NCBI GenBank assembly: GCA_041736305.1
Contig: JBGSTX010000334.1
Span: 1-64,000 of the forward strand
From: Oligoflexus sp.
GTDB taxonomy: Bacteria; Bdellovibrionota_B; Oligoflexia; Oligoflexales; Oligoflexaceae
Direction of reading: 5' to 3'
DNA length: 64,000 nucleotides
In this document: positions 3,548 to 55,325 of the stretch, in pieces
How positions within the stretch are numbered: the stretch's first letter is position 1
Layout: each line of letters opens with the position of its first letter
Made by a program: the position numbers and the translations under genes
The notes under the pieces: model-generated
The model's database searches: none
What the model was told of the DNA's origin: nothing
What the model saw: only the letters and a program-made list of their open reading frames with translations

Positions 3548-4477
3548 TTAACGCGTTAGCTGGAAGAAGACGTCTTCGAGTTTCTTCGACTTAAGAGCAA
3601 GCTCCTGCAGTCCATATCCTCCATCTAAAACCTCTCGGGCAACCCGGTCCAGATCCTGATCCTGGTCACGAGTCCGGAAGGAAATGAATTCTTCTCTGCC
3701 ACCTTCGCTTGCTATAAGCGAAACATCGACCAGACTGGTATAAGTTCGCAGCTTTTCAACGAGAGAGCTGGCTCCCTGCCGGACTTTGAGCTGAAACTGA
3801 CGCCCTGACTCGAGGCGACCGACTAGTTCCTGATGGGTACCCTGTTCGACGATACGCCCCTTGTCAACGATCACCAACTGATCGCAGATCGATTCGACTT
3901 CAGAGAGGATATGTGACGAAAAGAGGATCGTATGCTGACCCTTTAGGGAGCGAATCAGCTGACGGATCTGTAGAATCTGATTGGGGTCAAGGCCTTCAGT
4001 CGGCTCGTCGAGGATGAGCACATCGGGATCATGAATCAAAGCCTGGGCCAGGCCTACACGCTGCTTATAACCCTTTGATAGTTGCCCGATCAGACGCCCC
4101 CGCATCTCGCCTAACTCAAGCTGCTCGAAGGTACGATTCATGCGCTTCTTGAGATCAGCCCCTTTGAGGCCATGCAGGCTTCCTACGTAACGGAGATATT
4201 CTTCGACTTTCATTTCTTTGTGGAGGGGAGGTTCGTCAGGGAGGTAACCGATTCGCTTTTTCACCTCGATAGGCTGTTCAGAGATTTCGTAGCCTCCGAT
4301 TTTTGCGGTCCCTGCATCGGCGCCGATGCACCCGCAAAGAATGTCCATCGTCGTGGTTTTCCCAGCTCCGTTAGCTCCCAAAAAGCCAACTACTTGGCCT
4401 TTTTCCACGCGGAAAGAGATGTCATTCAAAGCGCAGACGTTTCCATAGGTTTTTCGTAAACCAACGACTTCAATCAT
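3548..4477 (-). CDS. GldA-like ABC transporter ATP-binding protein
   Basis: Walker A GANGAGKTT, signature LSKGYKQRVGLAQA, Walker B LILDEPT. Confidence 0.92.
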   Translation of the reverse strand: MIEVVGLRKTYGNVCALNDISFRVEKGQVVGFLGANGAGKTTTMDILCGCIGADAGTAKIGGYEISEQPIEVKKRIGYLPDEPPLHKEMKVEEYLRYVGSLHGLKGADLKKRMNRTFEQLELGEMRGRLIGQLSKGYKQRVGLAQALIHDPDVLILDEPTEGLDPNQILQIRQLIRSLKGQHTILFSSHILSEVESICDQLVIVDKGRIVEQGTHQELVGRLESGRQFQLKVRQGASSLVEKLRTYTSLVDVSLIASEGGREEFISFRTRDQDQDLDRVAREVLDGGYGLQELALKSKKLEDVFFQLTR

Positions 4478-4527
4478 TCGGTCTCTCCCGAGATGTTCTC
4501 AAGCCCAAAACATTCCACAGAAAATGT

Positions 4528-4555
4528 ATTTTAATCTGCAAAGTCAGTAAGTCAA
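4528..4555 (-). promoter_or_regulatory. Putative sigma70 promoter of the ABC operon
   Basis: TTGACT-N16-TAAAAT on the minus strand, about 50 nt upstream of the ATG at 4477. Confidence 0.5.
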
Positions 4556-4776
4556 GAATAGGAACTCAACACAAAATTAGCAGCTACCGCCAAAGCCATG
4601 AGGGACAAGCCTAAGCTGTTAAAGGTGGCCACTGACCCTAAAAGTAGCAAGTACCTCACTTGCCAAAAAAATTTTTCGTATTCGATACTTCCCGAGGAAA
4701 ACAGAAATTGCTACTATAGTTTTTTGGATGGACTCATCTTAGCTGCGACCTTGCTATGGCAACTGGAGGTGTCGAA

Positions 4777-5106
4777 ATGGCGACTTTGACCAAGGACGTC
4801 TTGGTAGAACTTATCCGCGACAAAATCGGCTTTCCTGTCAAAGAGGCCAAAGAGATTCTCGAGATTATTTTGGAAGAAGTGAAACTTCGGCTGGAAGACG
4901 GCAAAGACGTAAAGATTTCAGGTTTTGGCAAATGGACAGTGAAAGAGAAGCGCTCTCGTCCTGGCCGCAACCCCCATACCGGCGAAAAAATCGAAATATC
5001 GGCCCGCCGCGTTGTGACATTTCACCCTTCCGACAAAATGCGGGACCAAGTCAATCGCGAGTATGCTGCTGCTGAAATGGCCCGCGAAGCTCGCGGCGAG
5101 TCCTGA
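4777..5106 (+). CDS. ihfA: Integration host factor alpha subunit
   Basis: LTK..L...VKISGFG...K..RPGRNPHTGE..EISARRVVTF.PS; GGAGGT RBS at 4765-4770. Confidence 0.88.
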   Translation: MATLTKDVLVELIRDKIGFPVKEAKEILEIILEEVKLRLEDGKDVKISGFGKWTVKEKRSRPGRNPHTGEKIEISARRVVTFHPSDKMRDQVNREYAAAEMAREARGES

Positions 5107-5221
5107 TTTTTTCCTAAAATTCTCACTGCGGGTTTCTTCGCCCGCAGGCTTCCCCCTTCTGCCTAGAAGCCTTTTCAAAAATGGGATATCAAAGGTCTCT
5201 AAGCAAAGGAGCGTGAAACCT

Positions 5222-5824
5222 ATGCGTCTAACTCGCATTTATACCAAAATCGGCGATCAAGGCACTACGATGCTGGCATCGGGCGAAAAAGTCTCAAAAT
5301 CTGCTCAGCGGATTGAGGCCTATGGGACTGTGGACGAACTGAATTCCTGGGTTGGCTTCCTGCGCGACCAGGTCCGCATTGAGGAAGCATTTGCCAACCA
5401 TTGGTTGGATGGGAGCCTGGCTCGCATTCAGAATCAACTTTTTGATCTTGGCAGCGAACTGGCGACACCGACTGAGCATCTGAAGCCTGAGAGACAAGCG
5501 CTGATCGCTACTCATGACATTGAGACTCTTGAACGTGAAATGGATCTTTGCCAAGAGACCCTTCCCCCGCTGGCCAATTTCGTGCTTCCTGGCGGGCACA
5601 GCAGCAATTCACTGGCACATCTCGCTCGCACCGTTTGTCGAAGGGCAGAACGCGAAGTCGTTAGATTGAGGCAGGAAGAGCCAGCAGTGCGCCTAGAGAC
5701 GCAAATTTTCCTCAATCGCTTGAGCGACTGGTTTTTTGTGATCAGCCGCCTCCTTAGCCAGAAGCTGAAATGCCCCGAGGTTCTCTGGCAGCAGAGAAAG
5801 CCAATCGCACCCCCCCAGGCTTAA
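5222..5824 (+). CDS. PduO-type ATP:cob(I)alamin adenosyltransferase
   Basis: RIYTKIGDQGTT, YGTVDELNS, IQNQLFDLGSELATP, FVLPGG, ARTVCRRAER, LNRLSD; start placed at MRLTRIYTK. Confidence 0.92.
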   Translation: MRLTRIYTKIGDQGTTMLASGEKVSKSAQRIEAYGTVDELNSWVGFLRDQVRIEEAFANHWLDGSLARIQNQLFDLGSELATPTEHLKPERQALIATHDIETLEREMDLCQETLPPLANFVLPGGHSSNSLAHLARTVCRRAEREVVRLRQEEPAVRLETQIFLNRLSDWFFVISRLLSQKLKCPEVLWQQRKPIAPPQA

Positions 5825-43781: not shown

Positions 43782-44114
43782 GTGAGCCCTCAGCTTTTCA
43801 ACGTTAACGACGATACTCTTCGGACTTATATAAAAGAAAAAAAGCAACCGGTCCTCGTGGCTTTCTGGGCGCCCTGGTGTGGACCTTCAACTGTCATGGA
43901 ACCTATCCTTCGCGAGCTAGCTATTGACTACGGTAAACGGCTCGTCGTAGCTCGTCTGAATGTCGATGAAAATGCGCATGCACCGGTAGAGTTTGGTATC
44001 AAGTCGATTCCGCAGATTCTTCTGCTCAATGAAGGCGAAGTTGTAGGCTCATTGACTGGGCCCCAGCCCAAGGCCAAACTCATGGAGCTACTGGACAAGA
44101 GCTTGCCTCTTTAA
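43782..44114 (+). CDS. Thioredoxin-fold protein with a CXXS (WCGPS) site
   Basis: PVLV.FWAPWCGPS, LNVDEN, FGI.SIP. Confidence 0.88.
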   Translation: MSPQLFNVNDDTLRTYIKEKKQPVLVAFWAPWCGPSTVMEPILRELAIDYGKRLVVARLNVDENAHAPVEFGIKSIPQILLLNEGEVVGSLTGPQPKAKLMELLDKSLPL

Positions 44115-44186
44115 TCGATCTCCGCGTGCTTTTTCTCCACTACCTGCCTATACTCCGAAACTTCGCTCACTGCCGAAAAAGGAAGA

Positions 44187-44849
44187 GTGGCTATGGCGGA
44201 TAAAGTATCGAAGGGGCGCCTCGAGGCTCAGTATAGGAGACAAAACCTTCGGATCTTAGGAGTCGATGAGGTAGGCCGCGGTTGCCTGGCAGGTCCAGTT
44301 TATGCAGCTTGTGCGGCAATTGACTACCAAAAACTTGCCAAACTCGACAGCCGCACTAAAGGGCTAATTCGAGACTCTAAAACTTTGAGTCGACGTCAGC
44401 GCCAGAGTATTTTGCCTACGCTACACTCAATCTGCTCGGAACAGACGATAGGTATCGCCAGCGTCGAAGAAATAGAGACCGATGGTATAGTCTCCGCAAC
44501 TTTTCGCGCAATGCATAGAGCTTTCTCGGATCTGCAAGATAGCTACGATCTTCTTCTTATAGACGGCAAGCATACCAATCCTTTGATTGATATTCCGCAA
44601 GAGACGGTAATAGGCGGCGATGGACTCTGTTTTGCGATTGCTGCAGCTTCGATTATAGCTAAAGAAGCTCGGGATAGCTTCATGCATGCCGCGGCGAAGA
44701 CTTACCCAGACTATGGTTTTATCGACAACGTTGGCTATGGAACTAAAACCCATTTAGAAGCCTTGCTAGTCCATGGGATCACGCCTCTTCATCGGCGCAA
44801 CTTTGCGCCTATATCTGAAATAGCGCGCAACTCACCCGCTTTTTCATAA
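44187..44849 (+). CDS. rnhB: Ribonuclease HII
   Basis: GVDEVGRGCLAGPV, DSK.L, LIDG, IAAASIIAK..RD, GYGT..H, HRR.F.P. Confidence 0.95.
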   Translation: MAMADKVSKGRLEAQYRRQNLRILGVDEVGRGCLAGPVYAACAAIDYQKLAKLDSRTKGLIRDSKTLSRRQRQSILPTLHSICSEQTIGIASVEEIETDGIVSATFRAMHRAFSDLQDSYDLLLIDGKHTNPLIDIPQETVIGGDGLCFAIAAASIIAKEARDSFMHAAAKTYPDYGFIDNVGYGTKTHLEALLVHGITPLHRRNFAPISEIARNSPAFS

Positions 44850-44909
44850 GATGTCTCTCGATTTCTCTGAGCTATTGGCCCAGCCTCTCCTTTTTTGGAG
44901 GATCGACCG

Positions 44910-45287
44910 GTGGCTAGAGAGCATTATTCGCTGGGACGAAGGGGCGAGAATTGGGTCGCCAACTTAGTCGAATCTCGAGGTTGGACAGTCCTAGCCCGCA
45001 ATTGGCGCCGCCGCGGCGTAGAATTAGATATTGTGGCTTTACGTACCGGGGACTTAATTATTCTAGAAGTGAAGACTCGCCGCGACTCGAGGGCGCTCGA
45101 AGATCCTCACCGAGTCCTCTCTTGGGGAAAACGTAAGGCGTTCATTCGAGGCGCTCATTTATACTTGAGTCATGAACAAGACCTTGCGGCTTTAAGCATT
45201 CGCCTCTATTTAGCGGTGCTACTGTTCGAAGGTGGGCGCTTTAAAGCTCGCTGGCATCCAATAGAGATCACCGACGATCTCGTGTAA
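44910..45287 (+). CDS. YraN-family endonuclease
   Basis: LG..GE...A..L...G...LARNWR....ELDIVA......EVKTR; GGAGG RBS before the GTG at 44910. Confidence 0.88.
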   Translation: MAREHYSLGRRGENWVANLVESRGWTVLARNWRRRGVELDIVALRTGDLIILEVKTRRDSRALEDPHRVLSWGKRKAFIRGAHLYLSHEQDLAALSIRLYLAVLLFEGGRFKARWHPIEITDDLV

Positions 45288-45867
45288 AAATTCGCCGGAA
45301 TGTTAGATTGATCCGTGGCTCCACAGCTTTTTTTGTTTTTGCAATCGCATGCACAAAATGTTCTTGAAGCTTTCCTCGCATAATCAGCAAACTTCCATCT
45401 TCCAATGCAATTTCAAAGCGTCGTTGGCTCACACTCTCCTTTTCTTTGATGAGAAAACGACGGGTTCCACCAAAACTAGCCGACGCGATGACTGGCTCAC
45501 TTCCGAGCTCTTCTTCGTTATCTGCGTGATAGCCCTGGTAATGTCCGCCATCAGCATATCGATTAGCCAGAACTGCGTTAAAACGGCTTTGGGAATAGGC
45601 CTCGGCTTGCTTCCTTATGGAGATGAGATCTACCGTCCAAGGCAAAGGGGAGTTCTGTATTCCCGAGTACGAATAGGAAGCTTCGGGGTCCCCGTACCAG
45701 GCAGTAAGACGTGGAAGCTTGATGTCCCGCCCGTATATTTTTATTTTATCCTGTTTCCAGACCAGCGATCGGTCCAGCTCTTCAAACAGGGAAATTGGCC
45801 AGACCTTAGGCCAATATAGTATTTCACCGGTTGAATCAGAAAGAATAATTTCCGGCGCTCGATTCAA
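45268..45867 (-). CDS. AlkB-family 2OG-Fe(II) dioxygenase
   Basis: PRLTAWYG, FN.VL.N.Y..G, H.D.E, IAS.S.G..R.F, GSLLIM.G..Q....H, RINLTFR; TTG start after AAGGA. Confidence 0.9.
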   Translation of the reverse strand: MNRAPEIILSDSTGEILYWPKVWPISLFEELDRSLVWKQDKIKIYGRDIKLPRLTAWYGDPEASYSYSGIQNSPLPWTVDLISIRKQAEAYSQSRFNAVLANRYADGGHYQGYHADNEEELGSEPVIASASFGGTRRFLIKEKESVSQRRFEIALEDGSLLIMRGKLQEHFVHAIAKTKKAVEPRINLTFRRIFTRDRR

Positions 45868-45898
45868 GTGCAGTCCTTTCAAAAAAGCCGCTGTCTCT

Positions 45899-46915
45899 TC
45901 AAAGGTTATATACGTACTTAGCTTGGAGGACCATTCCAGCTTTAAAACCGCTTGAGGGGAGCAGATAGACACGATTTTCCATCGCGTTAAAGTTCCAGGC
46001 ATCAGGGCCTAGAGTCCTACCATCTATAGTGACAAGTATACGATCTGCACTCAGCGGCTTTTTCGATAAAAGGAGAGACGCACTGCGCTTCTTGATATCG
46101 TTAGAAAATCGTTGAAGTAAATCTGACCAATTATCCGAACAGATATCCAGCACGGTGCCTCCTGTTCGCTTCGCCAAAGAAATATATTCTTCACCGACAC
46201 GAGCGATTTCACAGCTGCCAGTGGACTCTGATGAATCGGGCACACCTATGATACCGCTAACAGTGGCATTCCAAATGTTTTCAGGGTCAAAGTCTTCGGC
46301 AAGGTTACCAAAGTCATCATCGCGAGCAGAGTCATTTGAACCGTCATCGTCGCTAACTATTAACACTTCTAACTGGGCGTCGTCTCTAAATGAGAGTGGC
46401 TCGTCCATGGGCTCCCCGTAAACATCGAGGTAGCGGTCATCTAGCTCGCCTGAAAGAAGGGCAGACACGCGGCCGAGGGCATCGTGGCTGCCGACCGATT
46501 TCGCTACTAAAGCAGCCCGATCCACCTCGATCCCCGCGGGAAATTCAAAGACTATCTTGGGGTCACTATTTTCATCTCTTTTACGTTTATCACGTCCTCC
46601 AGCTATTACATGTATCCTAGGATCTAGATCACTTTTTTGAAGACCTAGTAATAGAGTCTGAATATTGTTCTCTACTGCTTCTTTTTCTTCGTTCATACTC
46701 CCACTGGTATCAATAGCGACAACAAGGTCCAGCCCATTCAAGAGTTGGCTGCTATCGGTATTGAGCGCGGATTGTCGGCTATCGAAATTTCCAATGGGGT
46801 TATAGTCGCTTAAGGAGCCTTTACTCCCTTGGCCACTAAGGTTTTTGAAGGTATCGTTACAACCGTTCCCGAGGAGTGCCGCTGCCACGAACAGGCACAG
46901 TGAAGCCTTCTTCAT
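45899..46915 (-). CDS. vWA-domain lipoprotein
   Basis: Signal peptide ending GNGC; MIDAS DTSGSM; LIVSDD; Y..LA..TGG...DIC..NW; C-terminal beta domain. Confidence 0.82.
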   Translation of the reverse strand: MKKASLCLFVAAALLGNGCNDTFKNLSGQGSKGSLSDYNPIGNFDSRQSALNTDSSQLLNGLDLVVAIDTSGSMNEEKEAVENNIQTLLLGLQKSDLDPRIHVIAGGRDKRKRDENSDPKIVFEFPAGIEVDRAALVAKSVGSHDALGRVSALLSGELDDRYLDVYGEPMDEPLSFRDDAQLEVLIVSDDDGSNDSARDDDFGNLAEDFDPENIWNATVSGIIGVPDSSESTGSCEIARVGEEYISLAKRTGGTVLDICSDNWSDLLQRFSNDIKKRSASLLLSKKPLSADRILVTIDGRTLGPDAWNFNAMENRVYLLPSSGFKAGMVLQAKYVYNL

Positions 46916-46952
46916 AGAAATCCCTCTATATTTCGGTCTTTTTCTTTGCTCC

Positions 46953-46979
46953 TTATCGGAAATATTTGGCAAAAGTTTA
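46953..46979 (-). promoter_or_regulatory. Sigma28-type promoter (vWA lipoprotein)
   Basis: TAAA-N15-TCCGATAA, 37 nt before the ATG at 46915. Confidence 0.62.
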
Positions 46980-47246
46980 TCAAAACTAATAATTATTCCT
47001 AATTACCTCTACTTACAGAGTGGATAAAAATCTAGGATAGCAATTTAAGCTCTAGCTAAATCCTCCGTAGTCCGAGCTTTCACTGATACCTACCTATCCA
47101 TAAGTCCTCATTACCAAAAAGTTCCATTTGCCAAATTATCCATTACTTATAGTTCTTTACATATAATTCCCTGCCAGGTGCTCCTCGTTTTTCTGCAGAC
47201 TTATCCGATATAATTTTGTCGCTTTTACACGCTTTAAGGATGTTCC

Positions 47247-48746
47247 ATGAGCCACAATTCTTCAGCCTTGAATCTCAACTTGAACTCGATCATCCGCTAC
47301 CGCGAGCAGCGTATATTTATTGGCGACCATCAGCAGGCCTTAGCCTTATTCAGCTCGGAACATATTGATATTACCGAGGGTAAGATTATAAATGTCTCTC
47401 GCTTCGGTGCACGAATATCAATAGCTGAAGAAGCTGTATTTGTTAATCGCGGCGATCAGCTGAAAATAATCAGGCTCTATCTAGGCGACATAAGAATTTA
47501 TGATGGCCCCGCGACGATTGTAAGCGAGATGCGGGCTTCCGATGGCTTTGTTGACATCGGTCTCGCTCTCTTTGGCAACGGAGTCGATCTCGATCAAGTT
47601 AATGCCGTGCTTCAGATTGAGTCCACAATTGAGCCTCATCAGAACTTCCAAAGCATATCCGAGTTGAGCAAGCACATTGATCCCCGCTTCAAAATCCTGG
47701 TCGCTGACCTCAGCACACTATTTGCCGATCTGCGCGTAAAATTCAGGGAAGAAGAAAGACGTATTAGCGAGTCAGCGCTCTCTTCCTCCCATAAGCAGCG
47801 CCTCGAAGAACATGCAATCAGCGTTGCTGCTTCTTTATTCGGCAGCGACATACAGTCGATATTCGATGATTTCACTAAGTTTGTCTATCAGATGGATTCT
47901 GACTCGATAGCACTTCATAAGAAGTACTTTCGTTCAAACTTTCACGCCTACATACTCGATGCGCCCTTTATCAATCGAGCTTTTAACAAGCCTCTCGGAT
48001 ATGCTGGTGATTTTGGTTTAATGGTCATGCTTTATGAGTACCAGGACATCGGCACGACTCTTTTCGATAAATTTTTCCATCGTCTCGGCTGTACCGCTCC
48101 TTCTGCAGTTGCGAATAAAAACCGCGTCGTTTTCCTTTCAGACTTGATCTACCAGGAGTATGCGAAGCGTAGCGAAAAGGGTGATTTTTCGGTCGCTAGC
48201 ATAGCTTGCGGACCAGCACGCGAAGTGCAGCTTTTCCTAAATCATCTTGCAGAAAATGGAGTCACACGACCGGTCAAGACTGTATGCCTTGACCGCGAAC
48301 CTTACGCTCTCGACTATGCCCAGAGCCAGATTCGCAAGTCCATCAAGCCTGGTACACCAGTTGAAACGGTCTTTCTAAAAGAAGATGCCGTACTCGGCAT
48401 CATTAAAAAGAATCGATTCATCAGCGAGATCGCCGGCAGCACCATTATCAGCTGCGCTGGACTCTACGACTATCTTAGTGATCGGCTGGCGAGCAAAATG
48501 ATTGAGGGCATGTATGCACTACTTGCGCCTGGAGGAACACTGCTCATCGGTAACGTTTCAAATCAGATCCCAGATCGTTTTTCAATGGATTTTCTAATGG
48601 AGTGGAACCTCGTACTCCGTAGCTCAGAAGACATGATGCGCTTGGTGCCTGACGCTATCTGTCAGGAGCGTGGTGCCTCCGTCGAAGTAGTTGCAGAGCC
48701 TCTTGGTCTCAACCTGTTCCTAAGGATAAAAAAGCCAAGTGAATAA
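47247..48746 (+). CDS. PhcB-like class I SAM methyltransferase with an N-terminal PilZ-like domain
   Basis: R.REQR and NVSRFG (PilZ-like); RAFNKPLGYAGDF.LM.MLY; A.ANKNR; SIACGPAREV; LDRE..AL; AGLYDYL; LAPGG.L.IGN; MEW.L..RS. Confidence 0.75.
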   Translation: MSHNSSALNLNLNSIIRYREQRIFIGDHQQALALFSSEHIDITEGKIINVSRFGARISIAEEAVFVNRGDQLKIIRLYLGDIRIYDGPATIVSEMRASDGFVDIGLALFGNGVDLDQVNAVLQIESTIEPHQNFQSISELSKHIDPRFKILVADLSTLFADLRVKFREEERRISESALSSSHKQRLEEHAISVAASLFGSDIQSIFDDFTKFVYQMDSDSIALHKKYFRSNFHAYILDAPFINRAFNKPLGYAGDFGLMVMLYEYQDIGTTLFDKFFHRLGCTAPSAVANKNRVVFLSDLIYQEYAKRSEKGDFSVASIACGPAREVQLFLNHLAENGVTRPVKTVCLDREPYALDYAQSQIRKSIKPGTPVETVFLKEDAVLGIIKKNRFISEIAGSTIISCAGLYDYLSDRLASKMIEGMYALLAPGGTLLIGNVSNQIPDRFSMDFLMEWNLVLRSSEDMMRLVPDAICQERGASVEVVAEPLGLNLFLRIKKPSE

Positions 48747-50187
48747 GGATATAAGTCAGCAATTTATCCAGTGCGAACAAGAACTGTTTATCAAACGCGG
48801 AAAGATTTCCGTTAGTGTAGCAGTAGTTCTTGTTCTTCTATTTTGGCTGGTAGATTGGATTTATGCCCCGCACTTGGCTTGGTCTTTCCTAGCTTATCGC
48901 CTCGCCGTAATCCCAACAGTAATGATCTGTTTGTTTCTCTGGCGCCACAAAGCCTTCCGCGAACATCTCTATTTTATTCCAGGCTACATCGTTTGCGGCT
49001 ATCTGGGTTTATACACGGCAGTTTTGATCTCCCTCAATGAGCAGGAAAATTCTCCTTACTACGCAGGGCTAAATCTTGTTACTTATGGTTCGCTTTTCTT
49101 TTTGCCTTGGCGGCGCTTTCATGCTGGGGTTTCAGTACTTCTCACCTATCTCCCTTATGTCGTTTCGATCACTTTAGTTTCGAAAGAAACTTTAGACTGG
49201 GCTCATTTAGCTCCCCATCTGGCTTTCTGCAGCAGTACGATTGGAATGGGCGCGATCGTGATGGAGTTGAGCCGTAAACTGCGTTTCCGGGAATTTGAAA
49301 GCCAGTATCTTCTCAATGTGGAGATCCTCACTAAAGATGCCGTGATTGCACAAAAATCTAAGGAAGCTGTACATCTTGAAAAGCTATCGCGGCAATTTTC
49401 ACAGAGCGTGATCGATTCAGTTCGGATAGGATCCGTCTCAATTGACCATCCTCGCCGTGTGCTAGTCACCTGTCTATTTATCGACATCGAGAGTTCCACC
49501 GGCCGCTCAGTGCGCATTGACTATCAAGACTATGTCTCTGTTTTGAGCGATTTCTTTTCGGCTACCGCTAAAATCCTTTTAGATTTCAATTTGACCGTCA
49601 GCAGCTATCTTGGGGATGGGATGATGGCTTTTGCGAATGCCCCGGTCTACCAGCCGGATCATCAAGAAAGAACCTTGAAGGCCGCCTTGGAAATTCTCCG
49701 CATGCACGCTGCACGGCGTGATGCCTACATCAGAGAGTGGCGAAGTGATTTCAATATCCGCATAGGCATCAATACTGGATTTGCATCAGTCGGATTTTTT
49801 CCTGCAGCTACAAAGAATTCCTACACCGCTGTTAGTCCACAGGTCACACTTGCCAGTCGACTCTGCTCTTATGCTGAACGAAACTCGGTGGCTATCACAA
49901 AGCCATTCCTCGTTCAAATAGGAGCATCTTTGAAAGATGCTCATGTAAAAAATTTGCGCGTGGAACAAAATATAAAGGGATTCGAAGGCGAATCAATCGA
50001 AGTTTTGACTGTTCTGCCCATTTATAAAGATGTCGATCAGGAAGCCTGTCCTCGATGCCAAGGTCGCTATTCCATCGTCAATGAGCCCGGTGAAATCCAG
50101 GTTGTACGCTGTATGAGCTGCGGATTTACTGACGTCCGAGACGGCGCCATATCAATTAAACAGATTACCCTTCCTGAGGCTTCTTAA
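48739..50187 (+). CDS. 6-TM receptor fused to a class III adenylate/guanylate cyclase, with a C-terminal Zn ribbon
   Basis: Six hydrophobic segments including SPYYAGLNL; LFIDIESST; YLGDGMMAF; IRIGINTG...VG; YTAV...V.LASRL; CPRC...CMSC; 8-nt overlap with the upstream gene. Confidence 0.85.
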   Translation: MNKDISQQFIQCEQELFIKRGKISVSVAVVLVLLFWLVDWIYAPHLAWSFLAYRLAVIPTVMICLFLWRHKAFREHLYFIPGYIVCGYLGLYTAVLISLNEQENSPYYAGLNLVTYGSLFFLPWRRFHAGVSVLLTYLPYVVSITLVSKETLDWAHLAPHLAFCSSTIGMGAIVMELSRKLRFREFESQYLLNVEILTKDAVIAQKSKEAVHLEKLSRQFSQSVIDSVRIGSVSIDHPRRVLVTCLFIDIESSTGRSVRIDYQDYVSVLSDFFSATAKILLDFNLTVSSYLGDGMMAFANAPVYQPDHQERTLKAALEILRMHAARRDAYIREWRSDFNIRIGINTGFASVGFFPAATKNSYTAVSPQVTLASRLCSYAERNSVAITKPFLVQIGASLKDAHVKNLRVEQNIKGFEGESIEVLTVLPIYKDVDQEACPRCQGRYSIVNEPGEIQVVRCMSCGFTDVRDGAISIKQITLPEAS

Positions 50188-50203
50188 ATTCTACCCGAGC
50201 AAT

Positions 50204-50231
50204 AAAAAAAGCCTCATCGAATAATGAGGCT
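50204..50231 (-). terminator. Rho-independent terminator of rplS
   Basis: AGCCTCAT-CGAATA-ATGAGGCT stem preceded by an A7 run (U tract on the minus strand). Confidence 0.75.
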
Positions 50232-50254
50232 AAGTCTAAATATCTAGCTCTTGA

Positions 50255-50635
50255 TTACTTAACAGTGGCCACGTGACGACTACGGATACGAGCAGCCTTA
50301 CCAGCTAGGGAGCGTAGGTAATAAAGACGCGAGCGACGGACGATACCGGCTGCAATCAATTCCACCTTAGCTATATGTGGCGAGAGAAGAGGAAACACAC
50401 GTTCAACACCAATGCTGTTGGCGCCGATCTTACGGACAGTAAACGATCCTTCGACATGGCCTTTCTTGCGAGCAAGAACCACGCCTTCAAATTGCTGGAT
50501 ACGAAATTTACCGGCTTCTGCACCTTCTTGAAGCTTATAGTGCACTCTAACAGTGTCGCCAGGGCGAAACTTAGGGAAGGTGTTTTCTAGCGGGAATTTT
50601 TTCTTTTCAAAGTTACTGATGATTGCATTTTTCAT
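50255..50635 (-). CDS. rplS: 50S ribosomal protein L19
   Basis: P.FRPGDTVRVH, RIQ.FEG.V, FTVRKI, GVERVFP..SP, VRR..LYYLR...GKAARI. Confidence 0.97.
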   Translation of the reverse strand: MKNAIISNFEKKKFPLENTFPKFRPGDTVRVHYKLQEGAEAGKFRIQQFEGVVLARKKGHVEGSFTVRKIGANSIGVERVFPLLSPHIAKVELIAAGIVRRSRLYYLRSLAGKAARIRSRHVATVK

Positions 50636-50759
50636 CGGCTATTTACCTATGCAGATTGGCGGCCTTGAGCGCTACCATGACTCGTCTTTCCAGGACAGTG
50701 TTAACTACCTTAGAACGAACCCATGGTCAAGCGGCTCTTCACGACGCGTTCTTTCTCAA

Positions 50760-51206
50760 CTAAATTGCCAGTTCGAGGGCAGCGGCCTTCATGAGATCCT
50801 GCTTGGCATCTTCAAGCACATGAAAAAGCTCTTCGCGTTCGGCAGTTGTAATCCTCTGCCGCATCAGTGGCAGGATTCGATCCTCGATACTCTGCATGTG
50901 CGCCATAAATGATGATCGGAGAGCTTGGACGCGTGCATTATCAAGGCTATTGTTCGCATCGAGCAATGCCACCTGCTCGAGCATTTCCTGCAGTTCGTTC
51001 GAGATTCTGGCGAATAGGGCTTCGTTTTTAGGCGAAAGTTCGATCAGTTCGGGAAGGAGATAGCTCACCTCGAGGTTCAGGTAAGCTTTGAGGCGTCCGA
51101 GAATTCCAATCCTGAGCCCTTGGGTCTCCGAGCCCTCTGCCAAGAGCGTAAGCTCGGCTAGCCGTTCTTTAAGCTCGGTTTTCAGCAGCTGCAATACGTC
51201 CATCAT
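50760..51206 (-). CDS. Hemerythrin-like helical protein (degenerate)
   Basis: L..YL.LE..YL.P and H....ED.ILP repeats; GGAGG RBS. Confidence 0.55.
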   Translation of the reverse strand: MMDVLQLLKTELKERLAELTLLAEGSETQGLRIGILGRLKAYLNLEVSYLLPELIELSPKNEALFARISNELQEMLEQVALLDANNSLDNARVQALRSSFMAHMQSIEDRILPLMRQRITTAEREELFHVLEDAKQDLMKAAALELAI

Positions 51207-51377
51207 AAAACCTCCAAAGAACAGCCCAGAACATTAAAACGATAGGCTTAGGGTCGCCGTACCGAAGATGTGTATAGAGCACAACATGATGAGATGATGA
51301 GGGGTGATATAGACGATGCGCATCGAGCATGCAAGCCCGAGAATTGACAGGATTTCATTTTCCTGCAGAAGGTGCAT

Positions 51378-52271
51378 TTACAAAGGGCTTCGACTTCTTG
51401 GTGTATCACTCAGATAAGCGAGACCACGCCGCAACGCTATAATTAGCTTCGCTTGCCGTTCGGAAGATTCCCCTGGGAGATGGGCAGCAAGCTCTGCGCT
51501 CAAATCACTGTCACTCTTTTGGGCCAGTTCAGTCAAAGACCCACCTATCTTTCGTAGATCGCTTTGTTCAGCTGGACTTAAGGACGACCATATTTTTTGC
51601 GGATCCCAAAGTTCTCCTTTCCCTTCGAATGCATCGGCCATAAGGAAGAAGGCTAAGCTCCAACGCTCGTGATCGCTTAGGCTGACGCCGAAGGTAGGCA
51701 TAATAGAATTAGGTATGCCAGTGATCAAAAGGTTGTAGTAGCTGAATGCAGTCCTCGTTTCGCTCCTGGCTAGCTCGAGAAGATTCGTAGGAGGAGGAAC
51801 CATAGGAAAACGCTTATTTTGAGCTAGTTTGCCATCACCTAGCCCTTGGCTACCATGACAAGACTCACAGTTTTCTCGGTAGACCTCCAACCCAAGCTGA
51901 ACATTGGGTACTTCGGTCGGGACTGTGATGACTTTAAATGCCTCAACTATTAGGGATCTATATCGACGCGTCAGGCGTTCCAGCGGCACCCGATTCCCCT
52001 GGGCTATGTCAATTTCTTTGAATAAGCTTTGAAAGTCATTCTGCTTAGTTTTAGAGAGCTTTTCTGCAAGCGTTTCATAACCTTTTTGTATATCCAAGCG
52101 CTTTTCAGGCGAGATTCTGCCCTTTTGGCTTTCAGAAATCGCCCTGTCAACCAAGACCAGATGGTCACGCAAAGCTTTCGTATAATGGCGACGCATTTCT
52201 CGACTATCACGGGCCACAGCTGGTCTAATCATGCACAGAACGAGGAGTAAAAAGCTTAAAATCTTAAACAT
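51378..52271 (-). CDS. Periplasmic mono-heme cytochrome c (resembles the FTR1-associated cytochrome domain)
   Basis: Signal peptide; G..VY.ENCESCHG..G.GDG, P.PTNL, GI.NS.MP.F..LSD.ERW.LAF. Confidence 0.78.
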   Translation of the reverse strand: MFKILSFLLLVLCMIRPAVARDSREMRRHYTKALRDHLVLVDRAISESQKGRISPEKRLDIQKGYETLAEKLSKTKQNDFQSLFKEIDIAQGNRVPLERLTRRYRSLIVEAFKVITVPTEVPNVQLGLEVYRENCESCHGSQGLGDGKLAQNKRFPMVPPPTNLLELARSETRTAFSYYNLLITGIPNSIMPTFGVSLSDHERWSLAFFLMADAFEGKGELWDPQKIWSSLSPAEQSDLRKIGGSLTELAQKSDSDLSAELAAHLPGESSERQAKLIIALRRGLAYLSDTPRSRSPL

Positions 52272-53013
52272 GTCGAACCCTTTCGGCCGCAGTTAGCGGC
52301 CGATGGTTGGTAAGGATTTCATCGAAGCCCGCCCGAAGAGCTGCGATAGTGTCGTCGTCAGTCTCAGGTAGATAAGCTAGGAGCCGCGCTCCTCGGCGAT
52401 GATAACTTTCAACAATTGCGGGCGTAAAGAGATCATGGCCGAGGAATAATCTAGGCAGAGTATAGGTTCGGCCGGCCTGAATGGCCCCGAGCTTGGGAAC
52501 CTTCAAAAGCACTGAAAGCCCTGCTCTCCAACAAGCATGTTTATCTGCTAGAGTTGGCATCCTTGGAAATAGCTGCTTCGCTAAGCGCCGAGCCCGCGAG
52601 GTCCAAAGCAGCAGACGCGCTTGTGAGTTAAGCCAGGAGTCTGCATTCTTGCGGTGGGCCCAGCGCTTGAGGATATGGAGCGTCTGCAAATCAGTCTCAG
52701 GCTTTATGTCAAAAATCCAGCTGTATCCAGCATAACGCTGCATGAATTCATCGAAAGTCAGTATCTGCTGCTGATCCCGCGTTTTAATTCGTCGTATATC
52801 TACCAAACGCATTTCATGAACAGCACGGTCGACACCACAACTTCGCTCCAGACTTACATCATGCATGAGGACGATATGACCGTCCGCAGTTGCTCTTAAG
52901 TCGAGCTCTAGATGAATAAACCCTGCCTCTATAGCCAAATCAAAGGAGCGTAGAGTATTTTCAACACACTCTTGATGGGAGCCTCGATGACTGACCCAGA
53001 TAACATCGTGCAT
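52264..53013 (-). CDS. Glycerophosphodiester phosphodiesterase family protein
   Basis: SHRG, ENT..SF..A, ELD...T.DG..V..HD..L.R, I.TN.P. Confidence 0.88.
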   Translation of the reverse strand: MHDVIWVSHRGSHQECVENTLRSFDLAIEAGFIHLELDLRATADGHIVLMHDVSLERSCGVDRAVHEMRLVDIRRIKTRDQQQILTFDEFMQRYAGYSWIFDIKPETDLQTLHILKRWAHRKNADSWLNSQARLLLWTSRARRLAKQLFPRMPTLADKHACWRAGLSVLLKVPKLGAIQAGRTYTLPRLFLGHDLFTPAIVESYHRRGARLLAYLPETDDDTIAALRAGFDEILTNHRPLTAAERVRHV

Positions 53014-53171
53014 ACCTACCCTCTTTCAAAGTCTCTTCCATATACCTGAGCAATGGACCTTAGCTCAACGGAAACTCCTGGTCAGATTGAGGTCGTTCTT
53101 CTACAATCCGCTCGTGTTTCAAACAGCAAAGTGCTGAACTTACTGCTTATTAAGTCAGACGGGGCAGAGCT

Positions 53172-55325
53172 ATGAGCAAGCAATATAAAACCGGACTAAG
53201 CGACCGTGGAACCTGGGAGAAACTAGCCCAAAAAGATTGCGGTGCTGTTCCCCTTAGCTCCCTAGACCGAAAAACCCCTGAAGGAGTTCTGCTCAAAGCT
53301 CTCTATACGACGCGCGATCTCGAAGGACTTGATTTTCTCGATTCGCTGCCAGGATTTCCACCTTATACCCGTGGACCAAGGGCAAGCATGTATACGGTGA
53401 AACCCTGGACCATTAGACAATACGCAGGCTTCTCAACCGCCGAGGAGTCGAATCGCTTTTATCGCGAAAACCTCGCCGCAGGCCAGAAAGGTTTGAGCGT
53501 AGCTTTTGATTTGGCGACCCACCGTGGTTATGATTCAGATCACCCTAGAGTCGTAGGCGATGTCGGCAAAGCCGGAGTTGCCATCGACTCGGTCGAGGAT
53601 ATGAAAATACTCTTCGATCAAATTCCACTCGACACTATGAGTGTGTCGATGACAATGAATGGAGCCGTGATTCCGATTCTTGCGGCATTCATCGTCGCTG
53701 GCGAAGAACAAGGGGTTCGCCTTGAGCAGCTGTCCGGAACTATTCAGAATGATATTCTCAAAGAATACATGGTTCGTAATACTTATATTTATCCCCCTAT
53801 ACCCTCGATGCGGATAGTCGGTGACATCATTGCTTATACCGCAGAAAAGATGCCACGCTTCAATAGTATCTCTATCAGTGGTTACCATATCCAAGAGGCT
53901 GGGGGCAACTCAGCTATCGAGTTAGCTTTCACCTTAGCCGATGGTATCGAGTATGTGAGGGCAGCATTAAAACGGGGCCTCGCTGTCGATAGCTTTGCTC
54001 CTCGGCTTTCATTCTTTTTTGCGATAGGCATGAACTTCTACATGGAGATTGCCAAACTTCGTGCGGCAAGGACTCTCTGGTATAAACTCATGCAGGAATT
54101 TCAGCCCCAAGACCCTCGTTCATCTATACTGCGTACTCATTGCCAAACCTCGGGTTATACTTTGACCGAGCAGGACCCTTACAATAACATCATACGAACC
54201 ACAATCGAAGCCATGGCCTCCGTCTTTGGCGGCACCCAGTCGCTCCATACCAACTCTTTCGACGAGGCTGTCAGCCTACCGACCAATTTTTCAGCTCGCC
54301 TCGCTCGTAATACCCAACTCATTATTCAAGAAGAGACCGATATCTGCCATGTTGTTGATCCCTTCGGTGGCAGCTACTTTATGGAGTCCCTTACCAAAGA
54401 CCTCATCGATCGAGCGGCGCAGATTATTAAAGATCTCGATGCCGCAGGCGGAATGATCAGCGCCATCCAACAGGGTCTGCCGAAGCTTATGATCGAAGAA
54501 GCAGCAGCGACGAAACAGGCTAGGATCGATTCGAAGCAAGACGTTATCGTCGGAGTGAACAAGTACCGAACTGACGAAGTCAGTAGCTTTGATGTCCTTG
54601 ATATCGATAATACAGCGGTTCGTGAATCTCAAATCGCCCGCCTCCTTCGAGTCAAGGCAGAGCGCAAAGCAGAAGCTGTAGCAAGAGACCTAAAGGCCTT
54701 GGAAGAAGGTGCCCGTGGTGGCAGCAATCTGCTTGAGCTCGCGGTGGCCTGTATGCGTAGCCGGGCCACTGTTGGTGAAGTATCGGATGCACTGCGTCGC
54801 GTTTTTGGGGAGCACAAGGCGCCGATCCAATCGATAAGCAACATTTATGCAGCTGCAAGCCAAGACTCAAAAGACTTTAATGAAGCAAAGGCCGCTGTTG
54901 CAGCATTTTCCGAGCGCGAAGGTCGGCAGCCTCGCATTCTAGTAGCCAAACTAGGGCAGGATGGCCACGATCGCGGCGCCAAAGTTATAGCCACCGGTTT
55001 CGCCGATTTAGGCTACGACGTCGACATCGGAGCTCTTTTCCAAACTCCAGAAGAAGCAGTTAAGCAGGCTGTTGAGAACGACGTCCACGTTATTGGCATT
55101 TCGTCGCAAGCTGCCGCACACAAAACTCTTGTTCCCCAACTCCTGCAACTCCTCGAAAAAGAAGGGGCCAGCGACATAGCTGTCGTAGTAGGTGGGATAA
55201 TACCTCAGAAGGACTACGACTTCCTCCTTAGAGCCGGAGCTTCAGCAATCTTCGGCCCGGGAACGCCCGTACCCAAAGCTGCCTTAGAAACTCTTCAATC
55301 TATCGAGAGGAAGCGGCGTCCATGA
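53172..55325 (+). CDS. scpA: Methylmalonyl-CoA mutase (B12-dependent)
   Basis: [39 protein letters not shown]-like RLARNTQ, B12 motif GQDGHDRG. Confidence 0.96.

Follow-up and report, generated by a model that had tools for sequence, protein, structure and literature searches.

A PhcB-family methyltransferase gene overlapping a six-helix membrane cyclase gene in Oligoflexus: a candidate Phc-type signalling module with cyclase output

We describe a pair of overlapping genes, here called gene 1 and gene 2, in a 64,000-nt stretch of DNA from Oligoflexus sp. (positions 1 to 64,000 of contig JBGSTX010000334.1, assembly GCA_041736305.1), which as a whole is referred to below as the window. Gene 1 encodes a methyltransferase of the PhcB family, and gene 2 encodes a membrane protein in which a six-helix sensor domain of the kind found in PhcS is followed by a class III nucleotide cyclase and a zinc ribbon. 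We think it probable that the two genes constitute a translationally coupled signalling module of the Phc type, with a cyclase as its output. A first-pass annotation, made from the letters of the window, had proposed a module of this kind, and its central claims have held up: gene 1 groups with the PhcB family and not with unrelated methyltransferases, the membrane region of gene 2 is homologous to sensors that adjoin PhcB-like genes, and a cyclase occupies the receptor position in place of a kinase.

Homology and architecture of the two proteins

The gene 1 protein aligns over nearly its full length with a Cupriavidus necator protein (P0321; 25.7% identity over 460 amino acids, E 1e-41) and with the methyltransferase of a Paraburkholderia plasmid operon (E 6e-38), and the phc-operon proteins of these two genera overall match it at 23-26% identity over about 460 amino acids, with E values from 1e-41 to 6e-38. 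Cupriavidus and Paraburkholderia proteins serve as stand-ins for those of Ralstonia in all of our comparisons with either gene; C. necator JMP134 is described as having a complete Phc system, with products 56-75% identical to those of R. solanacearum GMI1000 (PMC2842291). A word-indexed search with gene 1 returned 449 proteins at E<=1e-3 among 8000 scored, and these comprise a close clade (about 500 amino acids, 37-81% identity) and a more distant set (26-33%). The JGI name 'extracellular factor (EF) 3-hydroxypalmitic acid methyl ester biosynthesis protein' is attached to 26 of 120 proteins among the matches listed. In Pfam there is a sub-threshold methyltransferase match only (Methyltransf_12, E 0.005), the sequence gave 0 matches to PDB chains at E<=1, and NCBIfam held nothing meaningful for either protein of the pair.

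Four motifs had been picked out in gene 1 by the first-pass annotation, and all are present (KPLGYAGDF at residues 248-256, ACGPARE at 320-326, AGLYDYL at 404-410 and MEW at 451-453), on invariant or nearly invariant columns of a family alignment of 84 members, 9 of which are betaproteobacterial. The 14 invariant columns of this alignment include P249, G254 and D255 in KPLGYAGD, G322 and E326 in ACGPARE, L406, D408 and Y409 in GLYDYL, and W453 in MEW, the others being R293, D349, G430, R458 and N489; another 25 columns are nearly invariant, and the gene 1 protein has the conserved residue at every one of the invariant and nearly invariant positions. In the AlphaFold model (mean pLDDT, the predicted local distance difference test score, 91.5) a beta-barrel, a linker of long helices and a class I methyltransferase core follow one another. 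The nearest solved structure is 3ocj, an uncharacterised Bordetella protein (Z 20.3), followed by small-molecule O- and C-methyltransferases. Broadly defined, the PhcB family includes gene 1, which lies outside the canonical clade. Its product would be a hydrophobic methylated small molecule, most likely a (3-hydroxy) fatty-acid methyl ester.

The N-terminal barrel has six strands in the model, at residues 31-108, followed by a helix at 115-128; structure searches with the whole model were filled by the methyltransferase domain. Two short motifs associate it with PilZ domains, for which the patterns RxxxR and [D/N]hSxxG have been given (10.1101/814665). The NVSRFG of gene 1 fits the latter, its V being the hydrophobic residue. 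Within the 54-member close clade the arginine motif is kept (R19 54/54, R22 54/54, E20 49/54), as is the second motif (N or D at 49 in 54/54, S51 in 53/54, G54 in 54/54), and 12 of the 84 family members match Pfam PilZ (PF07238) at E<=0.01, the best at 1.4e-5. The 9 betaproteobacterial sequences differ in having no N-terminal arm and in reading N-x-Q-x-x-S/A at the second motif. Counted simply as a pattern, with kin not independent, [D/N]xSxxG occurs in 12/14 cyclase-linked enzymes and 9/11 orphan enzymes (those with no sensor gene adjoining), and in 3/64 kinase-linked and 0/7 betaproteobacterial ones. Because RExR and [D/N]xSxxG are kept in the clade of gene 1 and are absent from the betaproteobacterial sequences, an input of cyclic di-GMP (c-di-GMP) is a reasonable supposition for that clade, and an unlikely one for canonical PhcB.

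Gene 2 begins with six hydrophobic helices, between about residues 22 and 178, in which SPYYAGLNL occupies residues 105-113. In its model (mean pLDDT 85.2) a continuous helix, 154-219, extends from the last transmembrane (TM) helix and is followed by another at 222-230. The six membrane helices and the class III cyclase were correctly described by the first-pass annotation, from which the zinc ribbon was absent. When residues 1-225 were used as the query, 87 proteins were recovered, consisting of 6 cyclases (gene 2 included) and 81 histidine kinases, many of the latter bearing the JGI name 'sensor histidine kinase PhcS' (phmmer E 3.6e-8 to 1e-3). An hhalign comparison of 9 cyclase-type with 80 kinase-type TM domains gave a probability of 99.8% (E 1.2e-28, 192 columns), and a Paraburkholderia kinase that adjoins a PhcB-like gene matched, at E 9e-16, a profile made from just six TM domains, all of the cyclase type. 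On these profile comparisons we regard as firm the homology of the gene 2 TM domain to the sensor domain of those kinases whose genes immediately follow PhcB-like genes. Beyond this domain the two types part company: a kinase profile found no match in gene 2, and C-terminal of the TM domain there were only matches to PF00211 and to zinc-ribbon families.

A joint alignment of 28 kinase-type and cyclase-type sequences has invariant residues at R54, Y107, Y108, A109, G110, F163 and R182, and nearly invariant ones at D39, F50, S105, L111, L113, T167 and E185; all 19 of the cyclase-type proteins compared have D39, R54, Y107 and G110. R182 and E185, conserved across both types, lie in the segment that follows the membrane domain, where the cyclase type additionally keeps LSRQFSxxV. 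Both polar and aromatic residues are among the conserved ones that fall inside predicted membrane helices; several polar residues so placed would be the pattern expected of a binding site for a lipophilic ligand.

The same membrane domain is found with several outputs. An exhaustive search with the TM region against 1.84 billion representatives yielded 338 proteins at E<=1e-3, and the best 150 of these comprised 75 cyclases, 46 kinases, 25 fragments and 4 others, the last being two proteins with a methyl-accepting chemotaxis protein (MCP) signalling domain (P0435 and P0446), an unclassified 318-amino-acid protein and a low-complexity false match. The domain is joined to kinase, cyclase and chemoreceptor outputs and therefore behaves as a sensor module. 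Two unusual arrangements were also seen. P0359 has an N-terminal Ser/Thr protein kinase ahead of the membrane domain and then the cyclase, and P0408 has an N-terminal alpha/beta hydrolase ahead of the membrane domain in a kinase-receiver (REC) protein; a hydrolase so placed would fit an ester ligand, which is a guess on our part.

The cyclase domain of gene 2 scores 50.8 bits against PF00211 (cut-off 21.9, E 2e-13, residues 242-389). Its closest PDB sequences are Pseudomonas aeruginosa CyaB (3r5g, E 5.5e-15) and Spirulina CyaC (1wc0/1wc1), both of which we take to be class IIIb enzymes, and Foldseek aligned gene 2 with CyaC and CyaB at TM-scores of 0.84-0.88, normalised to the target. D249, D293, T363, R374 and K413 are kept at cyclase sites; the roles that we give to such positions (metal-binding Asp, transition-state Arg, Lys and Asn) are those of the class III literature and are presumed to apply to gene 2. 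Among 19 cyclase-type proteins, 18 of them complete for the later sites, both metal-binding Asp residues are kept in 19/19, the Arg and the terminal Lys each in 17/18, the class IIIb Thr in 16/18 and the catalytic Asn in 14/18, and the base-specifying Lys site reads K in 7, T in 5, S in 4 and N in 3 of the 19. The family thus tallied looks like one of working cyclases. The zinc ribbon rests on weak matches at residues 435-463 and a beta ribbon at 444-468 of the model; its cysteines are found in the 18 complete relatives at frequencies of 18 (C437), 18 (C458), 16 (C461) and 13 (C440). Elsewhere in the host genome there are three other class III cyclase (PF00211) genes and six genes for proteins with a cyclic nucleotide monophosphate (cNMP)-binding domain.

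Conservation of the pairing across genomes

No fewer than 597 PhcB-like genes were detected when species-representative genomes were scanned. For the best 80 loci, all open reading frames (ORFs) were scored with profiles built for this analysis. At 70 of these 80 loci a gene with the TM domain lies directly downstream on the same strand. The partner is a kinase in 64 cases, a cyclase in 3 (L003, L004 and L005, all Bdellovibrionota) and a truncated or broken gene in 3. Ten loci have no TM-domain partner, and in 3 of them there is no room for one on the contig. Junctions in the paired loci range from a 349-nt overlap (the ORF calls may overextend starts) to a 22-nt gap, and the commonest is an overlap of 8 nt, as between gene 1 and gene 2.

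Closer to the host, 12 of 60 relatives of its genome have a PhcB-like gene (E<=1e-10), and in 10 of the 12 a TM-cyclase gene follows directly; of the remaining two, one is an orphan (genome G010) and one is cut by a contig end inside the gene. The conserved pairing on which the first-pass annotation had staked its reading is thus observed both among relatives and at large. The PhcB-like gene itself is patchily distributed, being present in 13/61 genomes with the host's own included and, within the genus, in 3/13 other genomes. In a tree built from 98 enzymes (a quick search with no root inferred, in which kin are not independent), those with the same type of partner cluster together: the cyclase label requires 3 changes against 13.3 in shuffles, and the kinase-linked enzymes fall into one clade of 73 rows, 8 of which are betaproteobacterial. 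On one and the same sensor domain, then, a cyclase stands where most loci have a kinase.

The kinase-type loci resemble phc operons in their further content. Operons like phcB-phcS-phcR are present in 64 of the best 80 loci (L006-L081), mostly in Verrucomicrobiota. At L045:3081-7251, for example, a 458-amino-acid TM-kinase is followed by a 420-amino-acid REC-HisKA-HATPase protein, which is the layout of PhcR, and at two other loci (L014:3905-9302 and L064:3878-9360) there is a protein of about 900 amino acids with the order TM-HisKA-HATPase-REC-HisKA-HATPase, the arrangement that a fusion of PhcS with PhcR would give, and then another REC-kinase. The Paraburkholderia graminis plasmid operon (L082, NZ_CP024936.1 432595-436970) encodes a methyltransferase of 468 amino acids, 65-70% identical to Cupriavidus proteins, a kinase of 445 amino acids and response regulators of 134 and 344 amino acids. 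The plasmid is conjugative, of 494 kb, and has a gene of the cyclopropane-fatty-acyl-phospholipid synthase family about 1 kb upstream of the operon. Taken together, these loci suggest that the Phc-like family is far wider than the Betaproteobacteria and that its outputs are exchangeable.

Proposed mechanism, contrary evidence and alternatives

In the mechanism that we propose, gene 1 would use S-adenosylmethionine (SAM) to methylate a fatty-acid-like carboxylate, possibly only when c-di-GMP, bound by the PilZ-type barrel, permits. The hydrophobic ester so formed would partition into membranes and may pass between cells, and the six-helix domain of gene 2 would bind it within the membrane. The sixth TM helix and the long helix would then pass the change to a dimeric cyclase, so that cNMP synthesis is altered, whether upward or downward and whichever nucleotide is made. 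The signal would leave the module as a cyclic nucleotide instead of entering a phosphorelay.

Several observations weigh against this interpretation or against parts of it. The comparison with PhcB and PhcS was made through Cupriavidus and Paraburkholderia proteins, taken in place of those of Ralstonia. On the enzyme tree, gene 1 falls in a separate clade of 6 rows (support 100), outside the canonical betaproteobacterial PhcB clade, and its product may therefore differ from that of canonical PhcB. At the N-terminus, the gene 1 protein has no match to Pfam PilZ at E<=1, and its arginine motif, R19-E-Q-R22, is an RxxR, one residue shorter than the canonical RxxxR; the PilZ-like domain claimed at first pass stands as a barrel in the model with conserved motifs and with matches in relatives, but not as a Pfam match in gene 1 itself. 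For the sensor, the precomputed Pfam column assigns PF20968 (MASE8) to 86 of the 87 proteins, gene 2 included, a label on which we do not rely; the MASE8 model run live scored on none of gene 2, a PhcS-labelled kinase (P0128) and the Paraburkholderia kinase, and it found no matches in the host genome and 14 control genomes. These misses may be a filter effect on membrane sequences.

The orphan enzymes also count against a fixed partnership. Among the genomes, the nearest relative of gene 1 (54% identical and from the same genus; L002:3953-5482 and L091:2607-4136, which is genome G010) has no partner. It lies between an OPT transporter/UPRTase and a 456-amino-acid ORF without Pfam matches, and the TM domain was not found in its genome with the gene 2 TM query at E<=1e-5. 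There is in addition an orphan subclade (L015, L027, L031, L048 and L078, at about 3900-5400 of each) that keeps the PilZ-type motifs and has no sensor gene adjoining. In the one locus of this group that was checked with Pfam, L048, the enzyme gene lies among genes for EF-G, a MoCF-type protein and ScpB/ScpA, and the other loci of the subclade have ORFs of the same sizes in the same places. These neighbours led us to reject a reading of the subclade as a chemotaxis operon. The existence of orphan enzymes implies that the enzyme can work without the sensor.

Finally, the catalytic residues of gene 2 are not all canonical. The catalytic Asn is replaced by T370 and the base-specifying Lys by S289. 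Both replacements, together with that of a conserved Gly by Ser, recur in the two closest relatives of gene 2, which are 73-74% identical; the Asn and Gly substitutions are seen in 3 of the 18 complete sequences. Both the activity and the nucleotide specificity of gene 2 are therefore uncertain. These substitutions, at sites of which the Asn is retained in most of the family, support an explanation that keeps the module and its ligand and supposes that the gene 2 cyclase is dead or very weak, the sensor acting instead through the zinc ribbon or as a heterodimer with another class III cyclase. The ribbon is conserved, with C437 and C458 in every complete sequence, and the three further PF00211 genes of the host could supply a partner. 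We consider such a pseudo-cyclase unlikely. Both metal-binding Asp residues, the Arg, the class IIIb Thr and the terminal Lys are kept, and the motif around the substitutions is conserved among the three Thr-bearing proteins as if under selection. Some mycobacterial cyclases that lack the Asn or the Lys keep their activity.

Two other explanations dispense with a signal that passes between cells. The methyltransferase might modify an endogenous fatty acid or membrane lipid, with the membrane domain monitoring lipid or membrane state in the same cell and feeding this into cNMP synthesis as a private feedback. Coupling through the 8-nt overlap would suit such a cis-acting pair, and the placement of conserved sensor residues within the membrane, the orphan enzymes among housekeeping genes and the patchy distribution would all be accommodated; yet the product of the characterised relatives is described as a secreted signal that is sensed by PhcS (PMC11960443; PMC10653808), and we hold private feedback to be quite improbable, with the reservation that sequence alone does not tell self-sensing from neighbour-sensing. 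The remaining explanation is that gene 1 makes no ligand and instead methylates the sensor protein itself, as a CheR-like adaptation enzyme gated by c-di-GMP. Weak matches to the CheR SAM-binding domain in 43 of the 84 family members, the two TM-domain proteins with an MCP signalling domain and the precedent of a PilZ protein that regulates a CheR methyltransferase (10.1101/814665) lean this way. The CheR matches, however, lie below the Pfam cut-off and cover the generic SAM-binding fold only, with none at E<=1 for the gene 1 protein; the top structural matches are small-molecule methyltransferases, gene 2 has no methylation helices of the MCP type, and the enzyme of the characterised relatives is described as making a diffusible ester (PMC11960443). 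A CheR-like role appears to us very improbable indeed, and the coupled Phc-type module with cyclase output is the reading that we retain.

A broader proposal may be put forward, with the caution that we would sooner doubt it than rely on it. Phc-type signalling might be widespread, in Verrucomicrobiota, Myxococcota, Bdellovibrionota and others, with the sensor wired to a kinase, a cyclase or a chemoreceptor, and the Bdellovibrionota might have reduced it to a two-gene circuit in which c-di-GMP gates synthesis through PilZ and the autoinducer is converted to a cyclic nucleotide in one step by a natural ligand-gated six-helix cyclase. If this is true, a natural membrane class III cyclase would for the first time have a ligand assigned genetically to its membrane domain. 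It is still regarded as unsettled whether the six-helix anchors of class III adenylyl cyclases act as receptors for ligands, and the evidence cited consists of synthetic CqsS chimeras and lipid effects (PMC4821796; PMC12414865). Here a natural cyclase with a membrane domain of the quorum-receptor type adjoins the likely synthase of its ligand, which would make ligand, receptor and read-out testable with two genes in Escherichia coli. If gene 1 is a PilZ-gated autoinducer synthase, c-di-GMP, a diffusible signal and cNMP would be tied together in a single short chain. Sensor modules are well known to exchange their output domains, and this makes the observation less surprising. Its value lies in a natural six-helix cyclase to which a candidate ligand is linked genetically, and in how widely Phc-like modules occur beyond the Betaproteobacteria.

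The locus and its relation to known systems

Coordinates are collected in Table 1. Both ORFs are real genes and not chance occurrences, having hundreds of full-length homologues, and the two-gene unit with its 8-nt overlap is as first annotated. So is the AT-rich upstream region, where GC content is 0.40 (46750-47499) as against 0.43-0.52 elsewhere across 44000-54000. The sigma-70-like site in the table is a candidate only: 2 such sites were observed in the leader and 5.1 +/- 2.6 in shuffles, and neither the promoter scan nor the terminator scan beat shuffles. The downstream hairpin, initially ascribed to the pair as its terminator, does exist, but a T-run follows its stem on the minus strand only, which makes it the intrinsic terminator of the convergent L19 gene; at best it serves the plus-strand pair bidirectionally. 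Housekeeping or unrelated genes flank the pair (RNase HII, a UPF0102 protein, a 2OG-Fe(II) oxygenase, a 357-amino-acid ORF, L19, a c-type cytochrome and a GDPD protein), and gene 1 and gene 2 therefore stand alone as a unit. Two minus-strand neighbours have no Pfam family at E<=0.001, one of them with a lipoprotein-like N-terminus.

Table 1. Features of the gene 1-gene 2 locus, in window coordinates
Feature	Position	Strand	Remarks
Neighbouring gene without Pfam family	45899-46972	-	357 aa; lipoprotein-like N-terminus
Candidate sigma-70-like site TTGGCA-16-AATAAT	46966-46993	+	10/12 positions match
AT-rich intergenic leader	46973-47246	+	274 nt; upstream of gene 1
Gene 1	47247-48746	+	ORF, 499 aa, ATG start
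PilZ-type beta-barrel (putative), residues 19-108	47301-47570	+	RExR 19-22, NVSRFG 49-54; model strands 31-108 and conservation
Helical linker, long helices, residues 115-236	47589-47954	+	Model; aligns across whole family
Class I methyltransferase core, residues 240-499	47964-48743	+	KPLGYAGD/ACGPARE/GLYDYL/MEW; model and invariant columns
8-nt overlap GTGAATAA	48739-48746	+	Gene 2 start within gene 1 end
Gene 2	48739-50187	+	ORF, 482 aa, GTG start; MASE8-type six-TM sensor, signalling helix, class III cyclase, zinc ribbon
Six-helix membrane sensor, residues 20-180	48796-49278	+	Conserved D39, R54, S105, Y107, Y108, A109, G110, F163, T167
Cytoplasmic signalling helix and pre-catalytic segment, residues 181-230	49279-49428	+	R182, E185, LSRQFS; model and conservation
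Class III (IIIb-like) nucleotide cyclase, residues 239-427	49453-50019	+	PF00211
C-terminal zinc ribbon, C437/C440/C458/C461 (CxxC...CxxC)	50047-50121	+	Weak Pfam/NCBIfam zinc-ribbon matches
Hairpin terminator, 9 pairs	50210-50231	-	T-run after stem on minus strand only
Ribosomal protein L19 gene, convergent	50255-50635	-	End shared with hairpin
Neighbouring gene without Pfam family	50760-51206	-	148 aa

In the open-access PMC and bioRxiv papers searched we found no description of a natural layout in which a PhcB-type synthase is joined by a cyclase receptor, in keeping with the first-pass annotation, which knew of no characterised system of this layout. The best matches in the same literature did not link phcB or phcS with Verrucomicrobia, Bdellovibrio or Oligoflexia, the matches listed on PilZ together with methyltransferases did not include phcB, and MASE8 as a sensor domain received a single passing mention. 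The main text of a 2023 study describes the phc cluster as restricted in distribution within Betaproteobacteria (PMC10653808).

The system most like the present one is PhcB-PhcS(-PhcR-PhcQ) of Ralstonia and Cupriavidus. The enzymes belong to one family along their whole length, from barrel through helical linker to methyltransferase, the membrane sensor domain is of the same type, and the sensor gene lies directly downstream, usually overlapping. The differences are that gene 2 has a class III cyclase and a zinc ribbon where PhcS has HisKA and HATPase domains, that no PhcR-like or PhcQ-like genes are found downstream of gene 2, and that gene 1 belongs to another clade and keeps PilZ-type motifs that the betaproteobacterial sequences lack. 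A PilZ-type domain is coupled to a methyltransferase also in MapZ-CheR1 (10.1101/814665), which consists of separate proteins with a chemoreceptor as substrate, whereas gene 1 is one fused chain of a family whose known substrate is a fatty acid derivative, and its binding of c-di-GMP is putative. In a review of PilZ domains, the sole mention of a methyltransferase is of this separate MapZ-CheR pair and not of a fusion.

With CqsA/CqsS and LqsA/LqsS the module shares a logic, in that the synthase of a lipophilic autoinducer is encoded with a minimal-loop six-helix receptor (PMC4821796, PMC10653808). The likeness drawn here is one of logic. Those synthases are unrelated enzymes, pyridoxal phosphate-dependent where gene 1 is a SAM methyltransferase, and their receptors have kinase outputs. 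In the order of six TM helices, helical domain and catalytic domain, gene 2 is the same as the hexahelical class III cyclases, such as Mycobacterium tuberculosis Rv1625c/Cya and mammalian AC5 and AC9, and the top two Foldseek matches were human AC5 (8sl4, 446 columns) and Rv1625c (7yzk, 414 columns). The whole-cyclase alignments have TM-scores of 0.33-0.41 and root-mean-square deviations of 12-17 A, so that the architecture is alike and a shared TM fold is not claimed. Rv1625c is described as a class IIIa enzyme (PMC4821796), and gene 2 differs from it in having a catalytic domain closest to CyaB and CyaC, and a zinc ribbon.

The nearest precedent for the proposed coupling is an engineered one. 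In the chimera of Beltz et al. (2016), the six-helix receptor CqsS replaces the membrane anchor of Rv1625c, and the cyclase responds to the autoinducer CAI-1 (PMC4821796); such chimeras are still treated as synthetic proofs of concept in a 2025 review (PMC12414865). As in gene 2, a six-helix receptor of the type used for lipophilic autoinducers is joined directly to a class III cyclase, and in the chimera ligand binding in the membrane controls cAMP synthesis. The chimera is synthetic and uses CqsS, whereas gene 2 is natural, has a sensor of the MASE8/PhcS type, adjoins a candidate synthase of its ligand and is known here from its sequence. Because the chimera is regulated by its ligand, the coupling that we propose between the six-helix domain and the cyclase of gene 2 is physically plausible.

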